DNA of 64,000 nucleotides from a virus: IMG/VR virus record IMGVR_UViG_3300045988_171964; one strand, 5' to 3'. Of this stretch, positions 3,217 to 50,410 are shown piece by piece. A program made the position numbers and the translations under genes. The notes beneath the pieces were generated by a model. It saw nothing but the letters and a program-made list of their open reading frames with translations, made no database searches and was not told where the DNA came from. Numbering within the stretch: position 1 is the first letter of the stretch; the number at the start of each line of letters is the position of its first letter.

Positions 3217-3480
3217 ATGGCATGTAATTGTATTAGCAGAGTTGAGAAAATGGTTAAGGAGAAGACCAACGAGAGTGGTTGCCTTGATACAAGTATCGGT
3301 ATTCCATCGGGCATTGCGATGGTGAATGTTTATGGTTTATTCCATAAACAGAAGAAAGATGGCTCTTTCTGCGAAAAGTGGAACCAGGTAAACATCCTAC
3401 CCGAGTATTGCCCTTTCTGTGGCAAGAAGTATGTGGAGGATAAGAAAGAAGATGTTCAACAGAAAGAAACTGAGAAGTAG
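3217..3480 (+). CDS. hypothetical protein, possible zinc-ribbon
   Basis: CxC near the N-terminus and CPFC near the C-terminus. The leader is of the TTAAAGATTATGGCA type. Confidence 0.45.
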   Translation: MACNCISRVEKMVKEKTNESGCLDTSIGIPSGIAMVNVYGLFHKQKKDGSFCEKWNQVNILPEYCPFCGKKYVEDKKEDVQQKETEK

Positions 3481-39446: not shown

Positions 39447-40352
39447 ATGGAACTAAGACATTTACGTTCGTTTGCGTATGTGGCAGAGACGCTTTCTTTC
39501 AGCATCGCCGCCACCCGATGCTTTGTCACCCAATCCGCCATCAGTCAGCACATCAAGGCTCTGGAGGATGAACTGGGATGCAAGCTACTGATACGCACAT
39601 CGCACAGCATCATGCTCACCGAGAACGGAGAGGCACTTCTGCCACGTGCCAAGGAAATACTGAAGTTGGCGGAAGACTGCAAGGAGCATATCAATGCACT
39701 CAACAACTGCATGACCGGAGAACTGCGCATCGGTGTAGGTTCCTTTATCGCACCCTATATCCGTGTGGCTGCACTTATATTCATGGAGCGATACCCTAAC
39801 GTAAGAGTGAATGCCGAATTTTCCAAGGCAACGAGCCTGAACCGCCTGTTGCGAGACCACATGCTGGATCTCGCTTTTACGATGAACGAAGCCTATACCA
39901 ACGAGGGCATCGATAGCCAGCCTTGCATCCCATTCAGTCTTTGTGCCATCATGAGAAACACACACCCTCTTGCCAGGAAAGATAAGGTAACATACTATGA
40001 CCTGCTGAAGCACGGCATCATCATGCCCGATGTAGGCGAACGTGTTTTCAACACTTTTCAGCAATATTTGCAGAACGATCTCACCAAATTAAGCGTAAAG
40101 TGTATCGTCAGTGACCCAGACGAAGACCTTGCCATCATAGAAGATACTCACCTGGTTACTTTTATGCCGAAGCTGTATCTGAAGAACCACCCTACCCTTA
40201 TAGCTCGTCCTATCCATGGCATAGGAGAAGAACTGATGAGCAATGCCCACTGTATGAAGGATGTACCTATGAAGCGTTCTGCACAACTCTTCCTCGACAT
40301 TATCAGGGACGAAGCCATCCCGTATATCAAGGCTTTGGAAGAAACTATGTAG
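39447..40352 (+). CDS. LysR-family transcriptional regulator
   Basis: N-terminal wHTH LRHLRSFAYVAETLSFSIAATRCFVTQSAISQHIKALEDELGCKLLIRT, followed by a roughly 200-aa substrate-binding-sized domain. Confidence 0.9.
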   Translation: MELRHLRSFAYVAETLSFSIAATRCFVTQSAISQHIKALEDELGCKLLIRTSHSIMLTENGEALLPRAKEILKLAEDCKEHINALNNCMTGELRIGVGSFIAPYIRVAALIFMERYPNVRVNAEFSKATSLNRLLRDHMLDLAFTMNEAYTNEGIDSQPCIPFSLCAIMRNTHPLARKDKVTYYDLLKHGIIMPDVGERVFNTFQQYLQNDLTKLSVKCIVSDPDEDLAIIEDTHLVTFMPKLYLKNHPTLIARPIHGIGEELMSNAHCMKDVPMKRSAQLFLDIIRDEAIPYIKALEETM

Positions 40353-41506: not shown

Positions 41507-41547
41507 TGCGGCGGTGAAGTCGTCGCTCTATTAAAACAGAAAAGACT

Positions 41548-41970
41548 ATGAATAAAAGAACAATTCCAGCCTGCATCATGGCTACGCTTGCAGTAGGTGC
41601 AACCGCCACTGCTCCCTATTATGATGTAAATATCACGCAGCAGCTCTGTGCTCCTTCATGCGTGGACGAGACTCCGGTTTTCAACCCTCAGTTCTCTGTA
41701 AAGAGTATTGACAACGTGGGTACTTCGCAATATCTCATAACCATTCACGTAGAGGGTGTTATCAGTTACGTGCCTTGCAACTGTGGCTCCTGCTGCACCC
41801 GCTCGCAGGTAGTAAGTCAGGATTTCACCATTCCTGTTTTCTCTGCTACGGCAATCACGAACGTTACCACATCTCTTGGCAGCGTGAAAAACCGTCTTGT
41901 CAAGGTAGCCTGCTGCTCCTGCAGCAAGACTTTCGTGTGCGATGCTCCGTTAACACTCACCATCGCATGA
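41548..41970 (+). CDS. secreted Cys-rich protein
   Basis: Signal-peptide-like N-terminus MNKRTIPACIMATLAVGATATA and about 12 Cys, including CNCGSCC and CCSCS. Confidence 0.45.
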   Translation: MNKRTIPACIMATLAVGATATAPYYDVNITQQLCAPSCVDETPVFNPQFSVKSIDNVGTSQYLITIHVEGVISYVPCNCGSCCTRSQVVSQDFTIPVFSATAITNVTTSLGSVKNRLVKVACCSCSKTFVCDAPLTLTIA

Positions 41971-43273: not shown

Positions 43274-43888
43274 ATGGCTTCTTACAATGGAAATGTTGAC
43301 CTTTTGTCTCTGAATGGAGCAAAGGTCTTAGTAGGTATCGATGAGAAGAATGTAAAGCGTCCTTATGTTTGCATTCCTCTGGATGTAAACGAAATTCGAA
43401 TAGAGACATATCAAAAAGATAATGTTAACAGACAGGTGGCTAAGTTGAGAGTTCACATCGAACCTTTTAAAGATTCGTACAAGAATAAGATTCGACAGAG
43501 TAATATCGAGCGTGGCGACACCGACAAAAGTGTGCCTACCCACGAAATGCAAATATCATTCTCCACCGAGTACGTCAAGGCAGTAGCCAAAGCATTCCCG
43601 AAACTCGTAGAACAGGTAAAGGAGTATAGTAAGGAGAAAGACCCTGACATCGTAAATCAGGATTTCAACGACGAGAACTCTCACCTCTTCAAGGCAATCC
43701 GTACTCGCATGAATAAGCGCATCGCCAGCCTCTATCAGCCACAGACCGCTACCCAGCAGCAGACGTACCCACAGCAAGCCTACGGAGCCGCTGGCAACGC
43801 TACCGCCTATGTACCGCCAGCAGATGGAGGCAATGATTACTCTTCAATGCCAGGTTACGATGATCCGAACAGCGACCTGCCATTCTAA
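43274..43888 (+). CDS. possible ssDNA-binding protein
   Basis: A Q/P/G/Y-rich linker and the C-terminal tip DDPNSDLPF resemble the SSB acidic tail (DDDIPF). An N-terminal OB fold could not be verified. Confidence 0.35.
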   Translation: MASYNGNVDLLSLNGAKVLVGIDEKNVKRPYVCIPLDVNEIRIETYQKDNVNRQVAKLRVHIEPFKDSYKNKIRQSNIERGDTDKSVPTHEMQISFSTEYVKAVAKAFPKLVEQVKEYSKEKDPDIVNQDFNDENSHLFKAIRTRMNKRIASLYQPQTATQQQTYPQQAYGAAGNATAYVPPADGGNDYSSMPGYDDPNSDLPF

Positions 43889-43895
43889 AGGTTTT

Positions 43896-43990
43896 ATTGA
43901 ATGTTGAATGTTGAGTGTTGAATGTTGATTTAGGCTAGCGCCCTTGAGTCCGTGAGGCAACTCAACATTCAACATTCAACAATCAACATT
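43896..43990 (+). repeat. P6 (complete)
   Basis: The arms flank the spacer TTTAGGCTAGCGCCCTTGAGTCCGTGAGGCAA. Confidence 0.9.
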
Positions 43991-44003
43991 AAATTTAACG
44001 CTT

Positions 44004-45104
44004 ATGCAAGAACAAATAAATCTTACAATTCCGAAGGGTTGGAACCAATGTACTCCCTCCCAGTTGGAAGCCCTCGCTGCCATCATGCAGGAGCAGATAG
44101 CCAAAGTAGACCGCTATCACCCCTTCGATATGCAGAAGGTGAAGATAGCCGTCTTCTTCCTTTTTGCGGGGATAAGCATCAATGCCTATCCCGACCCTCG
44201 TCTGCCCCTCAATGAGCAACATTACCTGGTAAGCATAGAGCCGCAGAAGAAGAGCCTCCTGAAGAAGCTACTCTCCCTCTGCGCCCCCGTCCCCAGCGAT
44301 TCTATCGCTGGTCACCCCCAGAGTAGCCATTTCCCCCTCTACCTCTGGCAGCTCAACTATTGGCTCTCCCCGAAAGCCAAGACCGATAATAAGACCTCCC
44401 CTGAGTATATCGCTCAGGGCGCAGGTCTTCTCGATTGGCTGGATGCAGATAGCGGTAATTTTCTCACCCGCTTTCCCTATCCGATTATCGGACAGAAAGC
44501 CAAGTGGTATCGTCGTGCAAAAGCCTTTCGTGGTCCGAACCCAGACCTCGATGGTTTCTCCTGGCAGCAATACCGTTTTGCCAGTGATATGATGCAGACC
44601 TACACCAAGTTAAGCAATAACCTGGTAAAGATGAAGCAGATGAATAAGTTCACCGAGGAGCAACTCCAGACGCAAGCTCAGAGTGTCGCAAGTGCAAGAA
44701 ACATGTTCCTTGCTACCATCTTTAACACCACCACCCAGTACGTCGATCCGACAACAGGCATCACGAAATACGATTTTCATTATGAGTCCAAGCAGTTCAC
44801 CGAGAACGCAGGTTATTTCGTCAAATATCCGGAAGCCAACTGGCAGGTGATATTATTCTGGTGGAGTGGCATCATGCACACCCTAGCCCATCGCTATCCT
44901 CACGTATTTAAGGTGCAGAAGGTAGATAATAAAAAGCCGCAAACCCCGATGGAAATCTACACCGCCACCACCGCCACGATGCAGAAGTATGCTGGCCTAA
45001 CGGAAGATCAGGTCAATACTCAGTCCTATTCCCTCGTTCTCGAACACCTCGAAAGGTTGTCGAAAGAGAATGAGGAAATGGAAAAAATGAGGAGAAACAA
45101 ATGA
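44004..45104 (+). CDS. hypothetical protein; hairpin repeat H7 lies in frame
   Basis: 366-aa ORF. Codons APVPSDSIAG are encoded by H7. ATGA overlap with mini-ORF C1. Confidence 0.5.
   Translation: MQEQINLTIPKGWNQCTPSQLEALAAIMQEQIAKVDRYHPFDMQKVKIAVFFLFAGISINAYPDPRLPLNEQHYLVSIEPQKKSLLKKLLSLCAPVPSDSIAGHPQSSHFPLYLWQLNYWLSPKAKTDNKTSPEYIAQGAGLLDWLDADSGNFLTRFPYPIIGQKAKWYRRAKAFRGPNPDLDGFSWQQYRFASDMMQTYTKLSNNLVKMKQMNKFTEEQLQTQAQSVASARNMFLATIFNTTTQYVDPTTGITKYDFHYESKQFTENAGYFVKYPEANWQVILFWWSGIMHTLAHRYPHVFKVQKVDNKKPQTPMEIYTATTATMQKYAGLTEDQVNTQSYSLVLEHLERLSKENEEMEKMRRNK
44287..44313 (+). repeat. hairpin repeat H7
   Basis: CCGTCCCCAGCGATTCTATCGCTGGTC inside ORF 44004..45104, in the same reading frame as H1. 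Confidence 0.85.
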
Positions 45105-45232
45105 TAGATGTAAAGGCATCTGTACACCCTTTGAGTCATAAACAGAAATGGAAGAAATGGGCGGGGCTTTCTCCTGCACTCAGAGCCACCGATTACAAAT
45201 GCCCACACTGCATAAGGATAGAGTATGAATAA
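45101..45232 (+). CDS. m5C-MTase TRD-like mini-ORF C1 (43 aa)
   Basis: Hand translation: MIDVKASVHPLSHKQKWKKWAGLSPALRATDYKCPHCIRIEYE. It has an xSPxLxA TRD-type block and ends in the TATGAATAA junction. Confidence 0.45.
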   Translation: MIDVKASVHPLSHKQKWKKWAGLSPALRATDYKCPHCIRIEYE

Positions 45233-45356
45233 CCATCGTTTTTATCAATATCCACGAGGCGAGAATAAGGGCGGTATTCTAAATACGGATCTCTGCCCTA
45301 CCATTACCATCAATGCGTGGGAGTCGAACGTTTTTCTGATAAAGAAATATGAATAA
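45225..45356 (+). CDS. m5C-MTase TRD-like mini-ORF C2 (43 aa)
   Basis: Hand translation: MNNHRFYQYPRGENKGGILNTDLCPTITINAWESNVFLIKKYE. Ends in the TATGAATAA junction. Confidence 0.45.
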   Translation: MNNHRFYQYPRGENKGGILNTDLCPTITINAWESNVFLIKKYE

Positions 45357-45675
45357 TAACACCCAACCTCAATACAAGCGAGGAACGATTATCAAGAACG
45401 GAAAGAGATATGGCTTTTATCCTGATGGTTCTCTCTATCGGATATACTCCACCTCCGACCGTCCGTTTCTTGAAATCGTGGATATAGAAGGTAAGACCTT
45501 CCTACGCATTCGTCAGGCAACAGAGCAAGGTTATACCGATTGTCCTGCACCAGGTGCAGCCGATTTAAGCTACCCCTCTTCTGCCCTAAGACGTAGCCGC
45601 ACCGTTGGAGGGGGTAAATTGGTAAATGCACTCACGGCTGCCAGTAGCAATCCGTTTGTGTTTGTAGAATTATAA
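45349..45675 (+). CDS. m5C-MTase TRD-like ORF C3 (108 aa)
   Basis: IRQATEQGYTDCPAPGAADLSYPSSALRRSRTVGGGKLVNALTAASS resembles the ATxxGY...PxSxxRRGRVG...TLT type of TRD. Confidence 0.55.
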   Translation: MNNNTQPQYKRGTIIKNGKRYGFYPDGSLYRIYSTSDRPFLEIVDIEGKTFLRIRQATEQGYTDCPAPGAADLSYPSSALRRSRTVGGGKLVNALTAASSNPFVFVEL

Positions 45676-45704
45676 ACAAAAAAAGATTTATAGAGCAAAA
45701 CAAA

Positions 45705-47006
45705 ATGATAACAAAGTTTAATTTCAAGGATAAGACTATTAAGTCTTATGCCATCCGAAAGCTGACACCCTTCGAGTGTTTCCGACTGATGGGTGTTCGT
45801 GATAACGTGATACAAACCATGCAGAGTACCAATGCCCAGGCAGCCGAACGCATCGCCAACTACAAGGGCAAGGGCAAACCTGAAGATATGGCAGTATCAG
45901 CCAGTCAGCAATACAAGCAGGCAGGTAACTCCATCGTGGTAGATGTGCTCGCAGCCATCTATCAGCAACTCTGGTATCCGAAAGAGCCAAAGCGTGAGGC
46001 ACAGACCTCATTCTTTGCCGATTTCTTCCCAGAAGACCAACTCCCTACCTATCCAGTAGATAAGAACCATGGTGAGAAACTTATCCTCACCACCTTTTCC
46101 GGTTACGACTCGCAGTTGATGGCAGCCGATGTTCTCGCCCAGCAGCACCCTGATTTCCGCTGGACGTGCGTAGGCTGGAGCGATATAGATAAGTATGCCT
46201 GTCAGATGCACAACCTCATCTTTCCGCAGTTTGCTGACAAAGCCTTGGGCGATATAACCAAAATCGACTGGCAACAGGTAAAGAATAATGTGGGGGGGCA
46301 AGAAATCGACCTTTTTACCTATTCTTCACCTTGTCAGGATATATCGCAAGCCGGCAAGCAGATGGGGTTGAAGGAAGGTTCCGATACCCGCTCGGCATTA
46401 TTGTGGCGAGTAGCCGATGCCGTGGAAGTGTTGCGCCCGAAGTATCTGCTTCAGGAGAACGTGGCAGCCCTGGTAAGCGAGAAGTTTCTGCCCGATTTTC
46501 AGAAGTGGCTTGATAAGCTCTCATCTCTCGGTTACGTAAGCCGATGGGCAAGACTCAATGCCAAAGACTATGGTGTTCCGCAGAACCGCGACCGAGTTTT
46601 CTGCCTCTCAATGAGAAAAGATGTAGCCTTCGATTACCAGTTTCCCGACCCTATTCCGCTGAAGAGAAAGTTGGAAGATGTGTTGCAGGAGGAAGTAGAT
46701 ACAAGGTTCTTCTTGAAAGATGAAGCCGTCAGCAAGTTCCTCCAGGCAAACGATAAAGACACCTGCGTCTTCCATCAGTTCGATATAGAGCCGAGCCACG
46801 AGAACGCCATGGCATTGAAAGCCATCCTCACCCTTTATCTGGAAGAGACGCATCTTTGGCATTGCACTCCCCAAGAACTGCAGGAACAGCTTTCTTCCGC
46901 TCACGAGGACATCATTATGCCGCTGTTCAATGACTGGAAAGAGAACGGCAAGTTCGCAAATCCTAAGTTGGAAAGTATGTATCATCATTTTTTGGAGAAG
47001 AAATGA
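45705..47006 (+). CDS. DNA (cytosine-5)-methyltransferase core, circularly permuted (IX-X-I...VIII)
   Basis: Motif order: IX IRKLTPFECFRLMG, X YKQAGNSIVVDVL, I TTFSGYDSQ, IV SSPCQDISQAG, VI LLQENV, VIII GVPQNRDRVF. Contains a G7 tract at 46292-46298. Confidence 0.85.
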   Translation: MITKFNFKDKTIKSYAIRKLTPFECFRLMGVRDNVIQTMQSTNAQAAERIANYKGKGKPEDMAVSASQQYKQAGNSIVVDVLAAIYQQLWYPKEPKREAQTSFFADFFPEDQLPTYPVDKNHGEKLILTTFSGYDSQLMAADVLAQQHPDFRWTCVGWSDIDKYACQMHNLIFPQFADKALGDITKIDWQQVKNNVGGQEIDLFTYSSPCQDISQAGKQMGLKEGSDTRSALLWRVADAVEVLRPKYLLQENVAALVSEKFLPDFQKWLDKLSSLGYVSRWARLNAKDYGVPQNRDRVFCLSMRKDVAFDYQFPDPIPLKRKLEDVLQEEVDTRFFLKDEAVSKFLQANDKDTCVFHQFDIEPSHENAMALKAILTLYLEETHLWHCTPQELQEQLSSAHEDIIMPLFNDWKENGKFANPKLESMYHHFLEKK

Positions 47007-47194
47007 GCAAGAAAAAGATTCGCAATAAGATACCGAAATGCACTCAGTGCTCTGCATCTCTTAATTTCGTTGGTAATGAAGAGTATGGAGATAATGGTTA
47101 TAAGTATCTTTATCATTGTCCGAACTGCAGTGCAGACTTAGAGGTTTTTGAACCTTTGGAAGAAGATAAACCCCAATATCCATTTTGGCAATGA
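47003..47194 (+). CDS. small zinc-ribbon protein
   Basis: CTQC...CPNC four-Cys ribbon. ATGA overlaps at both ends. Confidence 0.5.
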   Translation: MSKKKIRNKIPKCTQCSASLNFVGNEEYGDNGYKYLYHCPNCSADLEVFEPLEEDKPQYPFWQ

Positions 47195-47340
47195 TAAAGG
47201 TAAGTTCTTTAAACCCGGACCCTATCTATCTTGTAGTAAGCAGATGTTTGAAATCACAGTATCAGCGAAACTCGATAGTAAACTTTCTGAAGGCTACAGG
47301 CGGTAGGGCTGCAACGGCTGTAATAGTAAGATATGATTAA
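47191..47340 (+). CDS. TRD-like mini-ORF C4 (49 aa)
   Basis: Hand translation: MIKVSSLNPDPIYLVVSRCLKSQYQRNSIVNFLKATGGRAATAVIVRYD. Ends in the TATGATTAA junction. Confidence 0.45.
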   Translation: MIKVSSLNPDPIYLVVSRCLKSQYQRNSIVNFLKATGGRAATAVIVRYD

Positions 47341-47506
47341 AGGTTTATTTTCATTAAGCATACATCATAAAATGCCGATAAACGTAGATAACGATTGCTT
47401 TCACTGTCCGGTCTGCACTCATTATCATAAGCTGGCATTATCCGATATTCTTCCTGGTTTAAAACGTAGGTGTAATCGTGAGGGTGCTGTAATTGTAGAA
47501 ATATAG
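47333..47506 (+). CDS. mini-ORF C5 (57 aa), Cys4-containing
   Basis: Hand translation: MIKGLFSLSIHHKMPINVDNDCFHCPVCTHYHKLALSDILPGLKRRCNREGAVIVEI. TRD likeness is weak. Confidence 0.35.
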   Translation: MIKGLFSLSIHHKMPINVDNDCFHCPVCTHYHKLALSDILPGLKRRCNREGAVIVEI

Positions 47507-47510
47507 AACT

Positions 47511-47660
47511 ATGAATAGTAATCGCCCTATCATCCTCGGCTCGTATAGCCCATCTCAAAACGGCATAATCGTGCATCCTAAAGGTATTGCCCTATGCCTT
47601 TGTGGAGGGGGCAAAGGGCACGACGTAGATAAACCGAAAATATTATTAGAGTATGAATAA
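47511..47660 (+). CDS. TRD-like mini-ORF C6 (49 aa)
   Basis: Hand translation: MNSNRPIILGSYSPSQNGIIVHPKGIALCLCGGGKGHDVDKPKILLEYE. Confidence 0.45.
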   Translation: MNSNRPIILGSYSPSQNGIIVHPKGIALCLCGGGKGHDVDKPKILLEYE

Positions 47661-47754
47661 GGTTATAATAGATAAAGGCAGCATTCCTCCTTCTGAAGAG
47701 AAAGAGGATGATCCTAATGATATGCCACCCCTCGTATTGATAGAATATGATTAA
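47653..47754 (+). CDS. mini-ORF C7 (33 aa), acidic
   Basis: Hand translation: MNKVIIDKGSIPPSEEKEDDPNDMPPLVLIEYD. It shares only the C-terminal xxLIEYD end with the other cassettes. Confidence 0.3.
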   Translation: MNKVIIDKGSIPPSEEKEDDPNDMPPLVLIEYD

Positions 47755-47923
47755 GATATTAGCCATTCACGAGGCGAGAACAGAGCACGCAAAGGAAGTA
47801 CGCAAGCAGACTGGCACCAACGATTATCGGGATAAAGCCATCTTCTTTCGTGACAGCTTCCTGATGCAGTGCATCGGTACCTTCCACACGAAGGATAATC
47901 TCCTTGCCTTCAGATATGAATAA
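47747..47923 (+). CDS. TRD-like mini-ORF C8 (58 aa)
   Basis: Hand translation: MIKILAIHEARTEHAKEVRKQTGTNDYRDKAIFFRDSFLMQCIGTFHTKDNLLAFRYE. Same type as C10. Confidence 0.45.
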   Translation: MIKILAIHEARTEHAKEVRKQTGTNDYRDKAIFFRDSFLMQCIGTFHTKDNLLAFRYE

Positions 47924-47932
47924 AGAAAAGTT

Positions 47933-48097
47933 ATGAAAGAAATACATCCGATAGTAGTAGGCTTGCTGAATATGCCTCCGTTTGATAAGCGTTTTCAGCT
48001 GGCAAAACGAGTGTATGCAGTAAAAGGCATAGCCCCTGCTTGTAATACATGTGGAGGGGGTGGACTTCAGCCCAAAATATTTGTGGAATATGATTAG
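47933..48097 (+). CDS. TRD-like mini-ORF C9 (54 aa)
   Basis: Hand translation: MKEIHPIVVGLLNMPPFDKRFQLAKRVYAVKGIAPACNTCGGGGLQPKIFVEYD. Preceded by the 6-codon linker ORF 47916..47936. Confidence 0.45.
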   Translation: MKEIHPIVVGLLNMPPFDKRFQLAKRVYAVKGIAPACNTCGGGGLQPKIFVEYD

Positions 48098-48272
48098 GCA
48101 AGCCATCATTACTCACTATCGAACCGAGGAAGCGAAGGCATATCGCAAGATACACGGCGACAGAGGCGGTTGCCGTTATAAGGATAAATACCATCGTCCA
48201 AGCCCATCACCCTGGAGTAACTGCATTTCCACCGTAACAAAAGATAATCTTTTATGGCAGCAATACGAATAA
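48090..48272 (+). CDS. TRD-like mini-ORF C10 (60 aa)
   Basis: MIRQAIITHYRTEEAKAYRKIHGDRGGCRYKDKYHRPSPSPWSNCISTVTKDNLLWQQYE (C-terminal part of track ORF 48051..48272). Confidence 0.45.
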   Translation: MIRQAIITHYRTEEAKAYRKIHGDRGGCRYKDKYHRPSPSPWSNCISTVTKDNLLWQQYE

Positions 48273-48412
48273 GAACCTGCGCAAGCAGAGGCAGAGCAGA
48301 TGGAGATTGGTATTCCAATCCTCACTCCCAAAGGTTAGAAATCGGGGGGGGTATCAGTAACGCCATCTCCTCCATCGCCAAGGATTTCATGATCATTATC
48401 AATTATGAATAA
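48254..48412 (+). CDS. TRD-like mini-ORF C11 (52 aa)
   Basis: Hand translation: MAAIRIRTCASRGRADGDWYSNPHSQRLEIGGGISNAISSIAKDFMIIINYE. The G8 tract at 48344-48351 encodes GGG. Confidence 0.45.
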   Translation: MAAIRIRTCASRGRADGDWYSNPHSQRLEIGGGISNAISSIAKDFMIIINYE

Positions 48413-48424
48413 AAAGAGGAGCCA

Positions 48425-48451
48425 CCGTTCCCAGCGATTCTATCGCTGGTC
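48425..48451 (+). repeat. hairpin repeat H8
   Basis: 27-mer identical to H10 and H11. Lies after the MTase array and 12 nt upstream of promoter e. Confidence 0.85.
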
Positions 48452-48461
48452 CCCTCCCCTC

Positions 48462-48592: not shown

Positions 48593-50410
48593 ATGGCAAG
48601 CAAAAACAAAAACAGAGTAACCAACCTGCAGCAGCTCCTAAATCGTAGTGAGGAACTGAAAGATGCAGGCTATGTAGCCGTTCGCCCGGATGCCTTTACG
48701 CCGCTTAAAAATGGCGGCGGTAAAGTCTTTTCCTGGAACGACTACGTTCACGGCATGCTCCTAACCACAGCCGGTATGTCGGCAAGCGGTGGCGACACAG
48801 GCGGTTCTGCAGCACGTCAGCAAGTCTCCACTATCTTTGCATCGAGTGGCGGCGAGAACCTGGGTAAACCGAAGGACGTAGGTACCGAAGGCTTAGGCTT
48901 TATGGAATGGGGTATGGCCAACCGACTGCCAAATCTTATCTGGATGCTTTCCCGTATGTCGCCTTTTACAGCAGCAGGAGTAGATTACATCAAGAAGATA
49001 CTGGTAGGTCGCGGTCCCGCAGCCAAGTATCATTACACCCAGTACGTTGGCGGTAACATCACGGAGAAGTATATCCCCTACGAGAGCGCAGGAGTTCTTC
49101 TCCGAGGTCAGATAGCTGACCTCAAAGCCAAGGAAGAGGCAGCCGCCGAAGCCAAGCGCCAGAACGAGCAGCAGAACCAGAACGGGCAGTCTCAACAGGA
49201 GGAGTCTCCGTTCTCTGCGGTTCAATCGCAGGTCTTATCCACCGATGAAGAGGAAAGCGAGGAGATGAAATCCCTGAAAGAAGCACTCCACAAATGGGAA
49301 GAAACCAATGCCCAGCTTCGTGATTTCTTAGAAAACAACGACCTGATGCAGACCTTCCTCGATTTGGCAGGAGATATGGCTTTGATGTCACAATGCTTTG
49401 TAGAACTTCAGCTTAATCAGCGTTCCCTCGACGAGAACGGCAAAGCTGTTCCCACCGCTCAATGGACTCCGAAGGTGATCGGTCTGAAGCATCGCAGTAT
49501 CTTCACTACCCGACTGGAGCGCATGGACGAGAACTACCGCATCAACTATGCCTACGTCAGCAATCAGTGGCTCGACCCTACCCAATACGTCGGTGTGCAG
49601 AAAGAGGAAGACCGCAAGATAGCGGCTATCCCTTATCTCCCTACCCCATCAGCCGTGAAGGATTTGCAGCGCAAGATACGCGAGGCACGTCAGAAGAACG
49701 TAAGCCGCAAGAAACGCCCTACTCGCTTCATCATGTCGCCAAGAGATTTCGGCGGTCCATACTATGCCGATGCCCTTTGGCACTCCATCTTTGCCGGCAG
49801 CATTTTTGAGTATGCCTTCACCATCGTAGATGACCGCCTTACCCGAAAGCGCAACAGTAACATCATCGGTAGAGTTATCTATATCCATCAGGACTATATC
49901 AGCAGGCTCTATCAGCAGCAGGGTGAGAAGAAAAAGAAGACCCAGGGCGAGATTCAGAACGAAATCTTTACCTCTATCAATACCTGGCTCTCTAACCCCG
50001 ATAATGCTGGTCAGGCGCTCATTTCCTCTGCCTTCACGGGCAGCGATGGGAATGAGCACAAAGCTTGGGAAATCGTAGAAATCGAAACCAAGGCAAATGA
50101 TCAGGCGAATGCCGACAAAACCGAGTTGCAGGAAATAAGCAGCATCATCTTCTTTGCCATGGGACTTGATGCAAAGCTCATTGGTAATACCCCTGGCGAT
50201 ACGGCATCATCGGGCGGTACAGACCTGAGAGAGCGCTTCCTTGTCAAGCAAATCCAGTTTGCTCCTTTACAGCAGTTAATGATACGCCCGTTGGAAGTTT
50301 TGAGCCGATTCAACGATTGGGATGAGCACCTGGTATGGCAGATAGACCGAGAGGTATTGACCACCCTCGATAACTCGAAGACCGGAGTGGCGAAACAAGA
50401 GGCCTCTTAA
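48593..50410 (+). CDS. portal protein candidate
   Basis: 605 aa, first gene after promoter e and at the head of a structural operon. The call rests on size and position only. Confidence 0.35.
   Translation: MASKNKNRVTNLQQLLNRSEELKDAGYVAVRPDAFTPLKNGGGKVFSWNDYVHGMLLTTAGMSASGGDTGGSAARQQVSTIFASSGGENLGKPKDVGTEGLGFMEWGMANRLPNLIWMLSRMSPFTAAGVDYIKKILVGRGPAAKYHYTQYVGGNITEKYIPYESAGVLLRGQIADLKAKEEAAAEAKRQNEQQNQNGQSQQEESPFSAVQSQVLSTDEEESEEMKSLKEALHKWEETNAQLRDFLENNDLMQTFLDLAGDMALMSQCFVELQLNQRSLDENGKAVPTAQWTPKVIGLKHRSIFTTRLERMDENYRINYAYVSNQWLDPTQYVGVQKEEDRKIAAIPYLPTPSAVKDLQRKIREARQKNVSRKKRPTRFIMSPRDFGGPYYADALWHSIFAGSIFEYAFTIVDDRLTRKRNSNIIGRVIYIHQDYISRLYQQQGEKKKKTQGEIQNEIFTSINTWLSNPDNAGQALISSAFTGSDGNEHKAWEIVEIETKANDQANADKTELQEISSIIFFAMGLDAKLIGNTPGDTASSGGTDLRERFLVKQIQFAPLQQLMIRPLEVLSRFNDWDEHLVWQIDREVLTTLDNSKTGVAKQEAS

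Follow-up and report, generated by a model that had tools for sequence, protein, structure and literature searches.

A phage minigene array that may supply separate target-recognition modules to a permuted cytosine-5 DNA methyltransferase

In a 64,000-nucleotide stretch of viral DNA, IMG/VR record IMGVR_UViG_3300045988_171964 (hereafter the window), a chain of very short open reading frames (ORFs) surrounds a cytosine-5 (C5) DNA methyltransferase gene, and eight of these ORFs end in the same nine letters, TATGAWTAR (W, A or T; R, A or G), in which the stop codon of one ORF overlaps the start codon of the next. What do these minigenes encode, and why should they share a junction? A preliminary description of the sequence had drawn attention to the junction and left the minigenes, or cassettes, unidentified; that they appear to encode target-recognition domains (TRDs) of DNA methyltransferases is the main point of what follows. 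We consider it fairly probable that a single operon here encodes a split, multispecific C5 DNA methyltransferase, whose free TRD subunits would join the core in trans. Relatives were sampled as 80 fetched loci together with the window segment, and counts across these loci are phylogenetically non-independent.

The methyltransferase core and its flanking minigenes

Twelve mini-ORFs, three upstream (U1 to U3) and nine downstream (Z and D1 to D8), all on the + strand, flank an ORF of 433 amino acids (aa; 45705..47006, + strand) that matches the C5 DNA methyltransferase family PF00145 in two stretches (E = 1.6e-50; 172.8 bits against a cut-off of 22). Aligned to M.MpeI, its residues 13-58 correspond to chain positions 331-376 (motifs IX-X) and residues 187-358 to positions 112-286 (the catalytic motifs through VIII), and its translation carries motifs I (FxGxG), IV (PCQ), VI (ENV), VIII (QxRxR), IX (RxLTxxE) and X (GNS/A). 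Motifs IX-X thus come first (aa 13-80) and are joined by a low-confidence linker to motifs I-VIII (aa 120-300), after which the chain ends in a helical extension; in P0001, a near-identical relative, the motifs stand at 18 (IX), 74 (X), 131 (I) and 293 (VIII). All conserved motifs lie within the single 433-aa chain, which begins 12 residues ahead of its motif IX match, and judged by its motif order the core ORF is circularly permuted (IX-X-I…VIII).

No TRD is recognisable in the core by Pfam, by the M.MpeI alignment or in an AlphaFold2 (AF2) model; past motif VIII there is only a conserved post-VIII segment and the helical extension. The AF2 model, made for P0001, has a confident core, an N-terminal β-hairpin leading into motif IX, a low-confidence linker (99-105) at the place where the old termini would join, and the helical C-terminal extension, and its best Foldseek matches are M.MpeI, M.HhaI and M.HaeIII (E = 2e-15 to 5e-13). 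Such cores are widespread: at least 137 IMG/VR viral contigs, many of them about 100 kb, carry relatives of the permuted core, homologues number in the thousands in the protein collection, and nearly all full-length matches among the 120 listed are 431-445 aa long, with no fused TRD. In P0001, found in four contigs, the core is naturally fused to a D3-type module by the insertion of one A 22 codons ahead of the ATGA overlap; because this fusion exists, the topology IX-X-I…VIII-TRD must at least be tolerated.

The recognition function that the core seems to lack is suggested by its neighbours. When a large protein collection was searched with the concatenated mini-ORF products, 23 of 23 significant matches were PF00145 methyltransferases, and the matched segments map, often consecutively, between motifs VIII and IX of enzymes of 500-730 aa. 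In one of these, P0002 (motif VIII at 161, IX at 628), the order is U2 (296-328), D8 (331-375), D7 (416-472), U1 (483-520) and U3 (520-576). Modules of the fused enzymes end in Φ-Φ-Φ-Glu-Pro (Φ, hydrophobic) and run straight into the next module (FLVEP-V, MVLEP-Q, FILEP-S, LLVEP-T, the hyphen marking the boundary), and the phage mini-ORFs stop exactly at these inter-TRD boundaries (…FLIKKYE, …ILLEYE and …IFVEYD, each followed by its stop codon). On these alignments at least eight of the 12 mini-ORFs are homologues of TRDs, U1, U2, U3, D6, D7 and D8 directly and D3 and D5 by way of P0001 or of family membership; the eight come from at least five distinct families, and D1 and D2 are probably TRDs as well. 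Going by the sequence of M.SPRI, we take the long fused enzymes to resemble the multispecific methyltransferases of Bacillus phages. With a single 60-aa module as query, a sequence search of the PDB and a tblastn search of phages gave no useful matches, and megablast of the region against GenBank phages gave none. An exhaustive search with U3 returned 200 clusters, and 96 of the best 150 are no longer than 130 aa and start with Met; some of these small proteins look complete and have a similar hydrophobic, aromatic-acidic tail (Φ…Y-E/D), which suggests that free-standing modules reach beyond this phage clade.

The minigenes are real genes under purifying selection. Orthologous cassettes from related loci give ratios of nonsynonymous to synonymous substitution rates (dN/dS) of 0.02-0.41 in the annotated frame, most at or below 0.15, and values near or above 1 in most cases when read in the other two frames. 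The peptides can be grouped in at least 15 sizeable families; most peptides, whichever family they belong to, end in Tyr-Glu/Asp, and some families flank the core on both sides. Phages with cores at least 93% identical carry different arrays, which differ by whole cassettes (about 100-330 nt, most near 150), with homology breakpoints no more than about 20 nt from a junction; exchange bounded by the junctions, as read from these comparisons, clearly occurs over evolutionary time.

The junction between minigenes

The window holds ten exact copies of TATGAWTAR, all on the + strand, and nine of them lie within 45224-48412 (at 45224, 45348, 47332, 47510, 47652, 47746, 47915, 48089 and 48404). Dinucleotide-preserving shuffles, counted on both strands, average 3.28 copies (sd 1.59, maximum 8), and none of 100 reached ten, in keeping with the earlier assertion that the clustering is not chance. 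A site-by-site check likewise bears out the eight sites listed in the preliminary description (45224, 45348, 47332, 47652, 47746, 47915, 48089 and 48404): at each, TAR is the in-frame stop that exactly ends an upstream frame of 34-59 open codons, and the ATG inside the 9-mer lies in frame +1. The ATGA overlaps reported at 45101, 47003 and 47191 are also present. The list had missed a ninth copy at 47510 (TATGAATAG), which lies three codons past an in-frame TAG closing the upstream ORF (…VIVEI-stop-NYE-stop) and whose ATG starts the next cassette. The statement that the next ORF is always in the +1 frame is correct for the eight listed sites, but not for the variant TACGAATAA at 48264 (+ strand), which has no embedded ATG: there the following cassette starts 10 nt upstream, at the ATG at 48254, and overlaps its predecessor by 19 nt in another frame (48254-48272).

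Boundaries in the array are of several types, all on one strand: the 8-nt overlap ATGAWTAR at eight, ATGA at four, and gaps of 4-29 nt elsewhere. The ATG within the 47915 junction opens just a six-codon relay ORF (MNKEKL-stop; 47916..47936, + strand), whose TGA overlaps, as ATGA, the real next start at 47933. Downstream of the 48404 junction no credible gene was found. The tenth copy of the 9-mer (41547-41555), the sole TATGAATAA outside the array, is not an ORF end, its upstream frame being open for six codons only; it supplies the start (MNK…) of a 140-aa ORF with no assigned function, and the 9-mer stands at the corresponding position in many close relatives. Two 140-aa ORFs around 41547 were considered as paralogues and found to be unrelated to each other.

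The core joins its neighbours differently. The stop of U3 lies 29 nt before the core ATG, in a different frame, and the core meets the first downstream cassette through ATGA or an 11-nt overlap, a frame relation unlike that of the 9-mer; the 3' end of the core is completely different in a group of 70% identity. A readthrough product linking the last upstream cassette in frame to the core was rejected, the frame relation being inconsistent among relatives, at about the level of chance. A -1 frameshift at the T6 run before the core stop (CAT TTT TTG), which would fuse the core to the first cassette, was also rejected, as the run is unconserved even in close relatives and in view of that differing 3' end. 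Nor could reassignment or suppression of stop codons join the modules, because frames change at every junction and readthrough would not connect them; TAG is the stop at 48089, and no tRNA gene, suppressor tRNA included, was found in the window.

The preliminary description had called for a search of the whole genome and its relatives, and had raised the prospect that the junctions might be absent from close relatives. They recur across the 80 loci, where every module is conserved as a unit with its own start and stop. On the gene strand of these loci and the window segment there are 379 copies of the strict 9-mer, against four on the opposite strand (80 loci); nine of the ten copies in the window fall in the array, and 346 of the 379 lie directly upstream or downstream of a methyltransferase core.

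A census of cassette ends, run without assuming the motif, generalises it to TAT-GAN-TRR. The most frequent ends retain both the aromatic residue and the embedded ATG: TATGAATAA (Tyr-Glu-stop, n=107), followed by TATGATTAA, TATGATTGA and TATGACTAA (all Tyr-Asp-stop; n=63, 42 and 39). Where the ATG is lost the aromatic residue is retained, by TAC for Tyr in TACGAATAA (Tyr-Glu-stop, 35) or TTT for Phe in TTTGAATAA (Phe-Glu-stop, 26); where the last residue is changed the ATG is retained, as in TATGCTTAA (Tyr-Ala-stop, 18). Because each persists where the other is lost, both the protein tail and the start codon are under selection. Of the Tyr codons in Tyr-Glu/Asp-stop junctions about 90% are TAT, compared with 64% in the long ORFs of the window, the locus counts being non-independent as noted above. 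Junctions that lack the embedded ATG have an alternative ATG close by, and modules ending in …EL-stop are written TTATGA and thus overlap the next start as ATGA.

The conservation upstream of the 9-mer follows the codons (T prevails at second positions -11, -8 and -5), as expected if a hydrophobic strand is constrained at the protein level; no position downstream is conserved, and the conserved span at the junction is only 9-12 nt. A D3-type module starts MNS after the TATGAATAG junction and MIC after the ATGA of the core (L006, L008 and L011), so the first two or three codons of a module are set by the junction that precedes it. On this reading the 9-mer would be dual-coded, specifying both the C-terminal aromatic-acidic tail and stop of a module and the start codon of its successor, and would be no signal in itself. 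The embedded ATG most likely serves reinitiation coupling, and the earlier remark that the geometry fits termination-reinitiation is consistent with the start-stop overlaps on one mRNA strand, the preference for TAT, the nearby ATG where the embedded one is lost and the ATGA at other ends. By itself the junction is ordinary translational-coupling anatomy; the interest lies in the system that it delimits.

Proposed assembly, rival explanations and known systems

We suggest that each module is translated separately as a small protein from a polycistronic mRNA, and that its start codon, lying within the end of the module before it (T-ATG-AW-TAR or ATGA), would let the terminating ribosome re-initiate there. 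The putative host lineage makes little use of Shine-Dalgarno sites, and re-initiation would suit it for that reason. Free modules would then dock singly on the core and rebuild a small DNA-recognition domain, probably through the C-terminal hydrophobic strand and aromatic-acidic tail (Φ-Φ-Φ-E-Tyr-Glu/Asp-COOH), beside the N-terminal β-hairpin of the core and motif IX. The outcome would be a population of holoenzymes of many specificities, methylating the phage genome against many host restriction systems. Since the same short junction bounds every module, illegitimate exchange at any junction would still leave a working array, which would explain the rapid turnover of cassettes. A stronger form of this proposal, on which we find the case evenly balanced, is that a universal permuted chassis non-covalently takes any of dozens of TRD peptides of about 45 aa through their common Φ-Φ-Φ-E-Tyr-Glu/Asp tail, that a single phage thereby displays at least eight specificities, and that new ones arise by cassette insertion at the 9-nt junction.

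Assembly in trans is plausible on several precedents. Two subunits make up the natural C5 methyltransferases M.AquI and M.EcoHK31I, and M.SssI, M.MpeI and M.HhaI can be reassembled from engineered fragments (PMC3404938, PMC5944983); in EcoKI, hsdM and hsdS show stop-start coupling of methylase and specificity subunit, and removing the frameshift fuses the two (PMC3510504), as one inserted nucleotide does in P0001. Other points tell against the proposal. The predicted assembly in trans, by which each TRD would direct methylation of a distinct target, is not seen in the AF2 model of the P0001 fusion: owing to a shallow alignment the TRD part has a predicted local distance difference test (pLDDT) score below 50, too low to show docking. 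The helical C-terminal extension might be an unrecognised recognition module, making the core self-sufficient. When M.SssI was split in the distal part of its variable region, the fragments complemented poorly (PMC3404938), and the stretch between TRD and motif IX is therefore no obvious place for a permissive break. Among the small stand-alone database proteins some are fragmentary or chimeric gene calls, and Z and D4, and to a lesser degree D1 and D2, are not demonstrably TRDs by sequence.

The mini-proteins might also be translated and have no part in the methyltransferase, serving for instance as decoys or inhibitors against restriction or modification enzymes of the host, or as small DNA-binding proteins, and leaving a core active alone or with one partner. 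A conserved helical extension with no assigned role would fit such a core, and D4, acidic and without TRD features, and the zinc ribbon Z would especially fit such proteins; we nevertheless think this unlikely, as the modules are homologous to bona fide TRDs, always accompany a core in which no TRD is recognisable, and lie on both sides, where a permuted enzyme would attach a TRD (before IX, after VIII). We know of no activity of a TRD by itself. A further possibility is that the array stores exchangeable DNA cassettes, one of which is moved beside the core by programmed recombination at the 9-mer, giving phase variation like that of hsdS shufflons or pilin cassettes. Whole-cassette differences with breakpoints at junctions, among phages whose cores are at least 93% identical, speak for it, as do the families found on both sides of the core and the variant with a core-fused module. 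We find it improbable all the same: every cassette has a start codon, an intact frame and a dN/dS well below 1, and is therefore presumably an expressed gene, not a silent copy; the cassettes lie on a single strand, with no inverted repeats within the array and direct repeats of at most 21 nt; no recombinase domain was found among the ORFs scanned; the conservation upstream of the junction follows codons, unlike a DNA site; and the P0001 fusion arose from a 1-nt insertion, not recombination. The earlier proposal that the junction is a recombination boundary hence survives in its evolutionary sense, given whole-cassette differences that break within about 20 nt of junctions, and not as a dedicated site, inverted repeats being absent from the array, no recombinase domain having been found among the scanned ORFs, and the conservation being limited to 9-12 nt and codon-periodic upstream of the 9-mer.

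The preliminary description had also entertained low-level +1 recoding, and in its full form this would be programmed +1 frameshifting, or out-of-frame decoding, at the slow stop of each TATGAWTAR, producing one multi-TRD polypeptide. The downstream frame is indeed always +1 at the strict 9-mer, a stop codon would occupy the A site, and fused multi-TRD enzymes exist in nature. Yet the P-site codons could not re-pair after the shift (GAA to AAU, GAU to AUU), no conserved stimulator lies upstream or downstream, and the ATG, which frameshifting does not need, is selectively kept; other boundaries are ATGA, a 19-nt overlap in another frame (48254-48272), short gaps or the six-codon relay ORF; and the frame relation between core and first cassette differs, with an unconserved T-run before it. 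Ten serial shifts would give negligible yield, and the poly-TRD product would still be unattached to the core. We accordingly regard recoding as highly improbable and the low-level version as unsupported. We give still less credence to the idea that the mini-ORFs are debris of a continuous multispecific methyltransferase gene broken by frameshifts, their junctions alike through common descent: the modules are homologous to those of fused enzymes, and in-frame stops (D2 at 47504, D7 in L081) and poly-G tracts of variable length do occasionally occur, but each frame is under strong purifying selection, at least 15 families of unrelated modules share this junction beside cores down to 70% identical, the embedded start codon is conserved, and the TRD-less core recurs in thousands of sequences.

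The split methyltransferase that we favour is reminiscent of several known systems and identical to none of those compared. The enzymes M.SPRI, M.phi3TI, M.rho11sI and M.H2I of Bacillus temperate phages array multiple TRDs in one polypeptide (PMC12707154). Like these, the present system is phage-encoded, has several modules of about 40-60 aa per catalytic core, homologous to those of SPR-like fused enzymes and with coincident boundaries, and would serve the same presumed purpose, protection against many restriction systems; unlike them, it gives each module its own ORF with start and stop, its core is permuted and TRD-less with modules on both sides, up to about 11 modules occur, and close relatives differ by cassette-wise turnover. 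Motifs IX-X precede I-VIII in the Type H permuted C5 methyltransferases too (M.BssHII, M.Alw26I, M2.Eco31I, M.Esp3I and M2.BsaI), in which the TRD stays attached (PMC5944983). A permutation of this kind allows TRDs before IX, after VIII or both; the present chain opens about 12 residues ahead of motif IX and carries no recognisable TRD. With M.AquI and M.EcoHK31I the system would share a C5 methyltransferase built from separately translated polypeptides, split in or by the variable region. In those fixed two-piece enzymes the conserved motifs are divided between subunits (I-VIII and IX-X, or motif IX alone; PMC3404938), whereas here all ten motifs are in one chain and only the specificity module is detached, in many alternatives.

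The likeness to EcoKI HsdS, with its separate specificity subunit, its stop-start coupling and an hsdM-hsdS fusion comparable to the 1-nt-insertion fusion of P0001, is a functional analogy: Type I systems modify N6-adenine through a coiled-coil S subunit with two TRDs and have no tandem arrays of modules of about 50 aa, and phase-variable hsdS loci use inverted repeats and a recombinase, neither of which was found here (in the array and among the ORFs scanned, respectively). In the full-text literature, where few subscription journals are covered, we found no description of free-standing TRD arrays. If the proposal is right, the system would be the first example of a C5 methyltransferase whose specificity subunits are detachable and encoded in an array, and the ‘one enzyme, many TRDs’ strategy by which Bacillus phages counter restriction would apply to a large group of metagenomic phages as well, those of the human gut included. 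It would also explain a fast-evolving genome hotspot, make the set of 5-methylcytosine (m5C) motifs of a phage readable from its list of cassettes, and give enzymologists a minimal TRD as nature delimits it (about 40-60 aa, its ends defined) together with a chassis-plus-peptide design for plug-in programmable cytosine methylation. For annotation, chains of 30-60-aa ORFs beside a ‘truncated’ Dcm-like gene should not be dismissed as noise or pseudogenes.

Individual minigenes and genomic context

The gene upstream of the array, 366 aa as its longest ORF (44004..45104, + strand), shares an ATGA overlap with the first cassette at 45101 and has no Pfam or PHROG match; its true start may lie further downstream, because a copy of a hairpin repeat (below) falls inside it at 44292. 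All cassettes that follow are on the + strand. U1 (45101..45232; 43 aa, ending SPALRATDYKCPHCIRIEYE) is a TRD minigene identified by BLASTP, at 46-63% identity within the variable region of 14 full-length C5 methyltransferases (dN/dS 0.32). U2 (45225..45356; 43 aa, ending CPTITINAWESNVFLIKKYE) matches P0013 as well as P0002, at residues 296-328 between motifs VIII and IX (dN/dS 0.40). In U3 (45349..45675; 108 aa, ending …FVFVEL) the TRD occupies the C-terminal half, at about 49-105, and matches P0004 at 306-359 in addition to its P0002 segment (dN/dS 0.10).

Downstream of the core, Z (47003..47194) is a 63-aa zinc-ribbon-like mini-protein (CxxC…CxxC) with ATGA overlaps on both sides (dN/dS 0.41). 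Its matches to zinc-ribbon Pfam families are weak and under the curated cut-offs; no match to methyltransferases was found, and it is unrelated to the other cassette families. D1 (47191..47340; 49 aa, ending …VIVRYD; dN/dS 0.13) has no direct match among fused enzymes and is placed as a probable TRD minigene by hhalign, which pairs it with D2 at 85% probability and with U1 at 45%. The Cys-rich, D1-related D2 (47333..47506; 57 aa; dN/dS 0.07) ends at the TAG at 47504-47506. This TAG is followed in frame by AAC TAT GAA TAG (47504-47518 in all), a vestigial NYE-stop junction also seen in several close relatives. D3 (47511..47660; 49 aa, ending …ILLEYE) clusters with D6 and is 94% identical to the C-terminal 49 residues of the core-TRD fusion P0001 (dN/dS 0.14). 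D4 (47653..47754), found in 14 loci, is a strongly acidic 33-aa mini-protein (…SEEKEDDPNDMPP…, ending …PPLVLIEYD; dN/dS 0.21) that has the common C-terminal tail (LVLIEYD) without a TRD-like body; it might fill the docking site as a blank or a regulator.

D5 (47747..47923; 58 aa, ARTEHAKEVRK…TFHTKDNLLAFRYE) clusters with D7 and has the lowest dN/dS, 0.02. D6 (47933..48097; 54 aa, ending APACNTCGGGGLQPKIFVEYD) shows 39-67% identity to the variable regions of 15 methyltransferases and aligns with P0014 (dN/dS 0.15). D7 (48090..48272; 60 aa, RTEEAKAYRK…NCISTVTKDNLLWQQYE), which ends in TACGAATAA and is assigned through P0002, has a dN/dS of 0.09. The L081 copy of D7 (3464-3472) reads ATG ATT TAG, an in-frame TAG within an otherwise conserved cassette. 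The last cassette, D8 (48254..48412; 52 aa, ending QRLEIGGGISNAISSIAKDFMIIINYE; dN/dS 0.07), aligns with P0004 (258-301) as well as P0002. It contains a G8 tract (48343-48350) that in relatives is an uninterrupted G7 or G9, or interrupted; changes in its length would shift the frame and could reflect slipped-strand phase variation of one specificity module or a homopolymer assembly error. The core has a comparable tract (46293-46299), G7 in 22 loci and G8 in one. In L072 and L076 the core ORFs, of 460 and 463 aa, run on into G-run sequence (…TSNSGGVSSTPFKLV) and may be further natural core-module fusions or frameshifted assemblies.

Directly after the last cassette stands the hairpin repeat, CCAGCGAT-TCT-ATCGCTGG (48421..48457, + strand). 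The repeat (CCCAGCGATTCTATCGCTGGTC; 8-bp stem, TCT loop) occurs ten times with no more than three mismatches, at 475, 20336, 28686, 29289, 30586, 38378, 44292, 48430, 56481 and 57779, always on the + strand and never on the - strand of the window; compared with the ORF list, seven of the ten copies lie just past ORF ends. It is kept in the 24 closest fetched loci and absent from the rest. The repeat is probably a terminator or RNA-processing punctuation, and hairpin repeats bound the likely transcription unit, whose end the 48421 copy would mark.

A portal-like ORF (48593-50410) has 27.6% identity to the portal of a Polaribacter phage and 23.1% to an unannotated human-faecal phage record, and the window also encodes a BT4734-like primase domain, ThyX and an S49 peptidase domain; PHROGs gave nothing informative on the neighbouring genes. 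Bin labels of related contigs are inconsistent (Prevotella twice, Oscillibacter, Clostridium and Anaerobutyricum), these probably being mis-binned phage contigs. The window comes from an uncultivated phage of about 100 kb that probably infects a member of the Bacteroidota. Upstream of the 44004 ORF, at 43886-44004, lies an imperfect 46-nt inverted repeat (83% complementary) composed of tandem TGTTGAA heptamers, which may be a regulatory or origin-like element, and a full-length LysR-family regulator (HTH_1 and LysR_substrate) is encoded at 39447-40352 in this otherwise phage-like genome.

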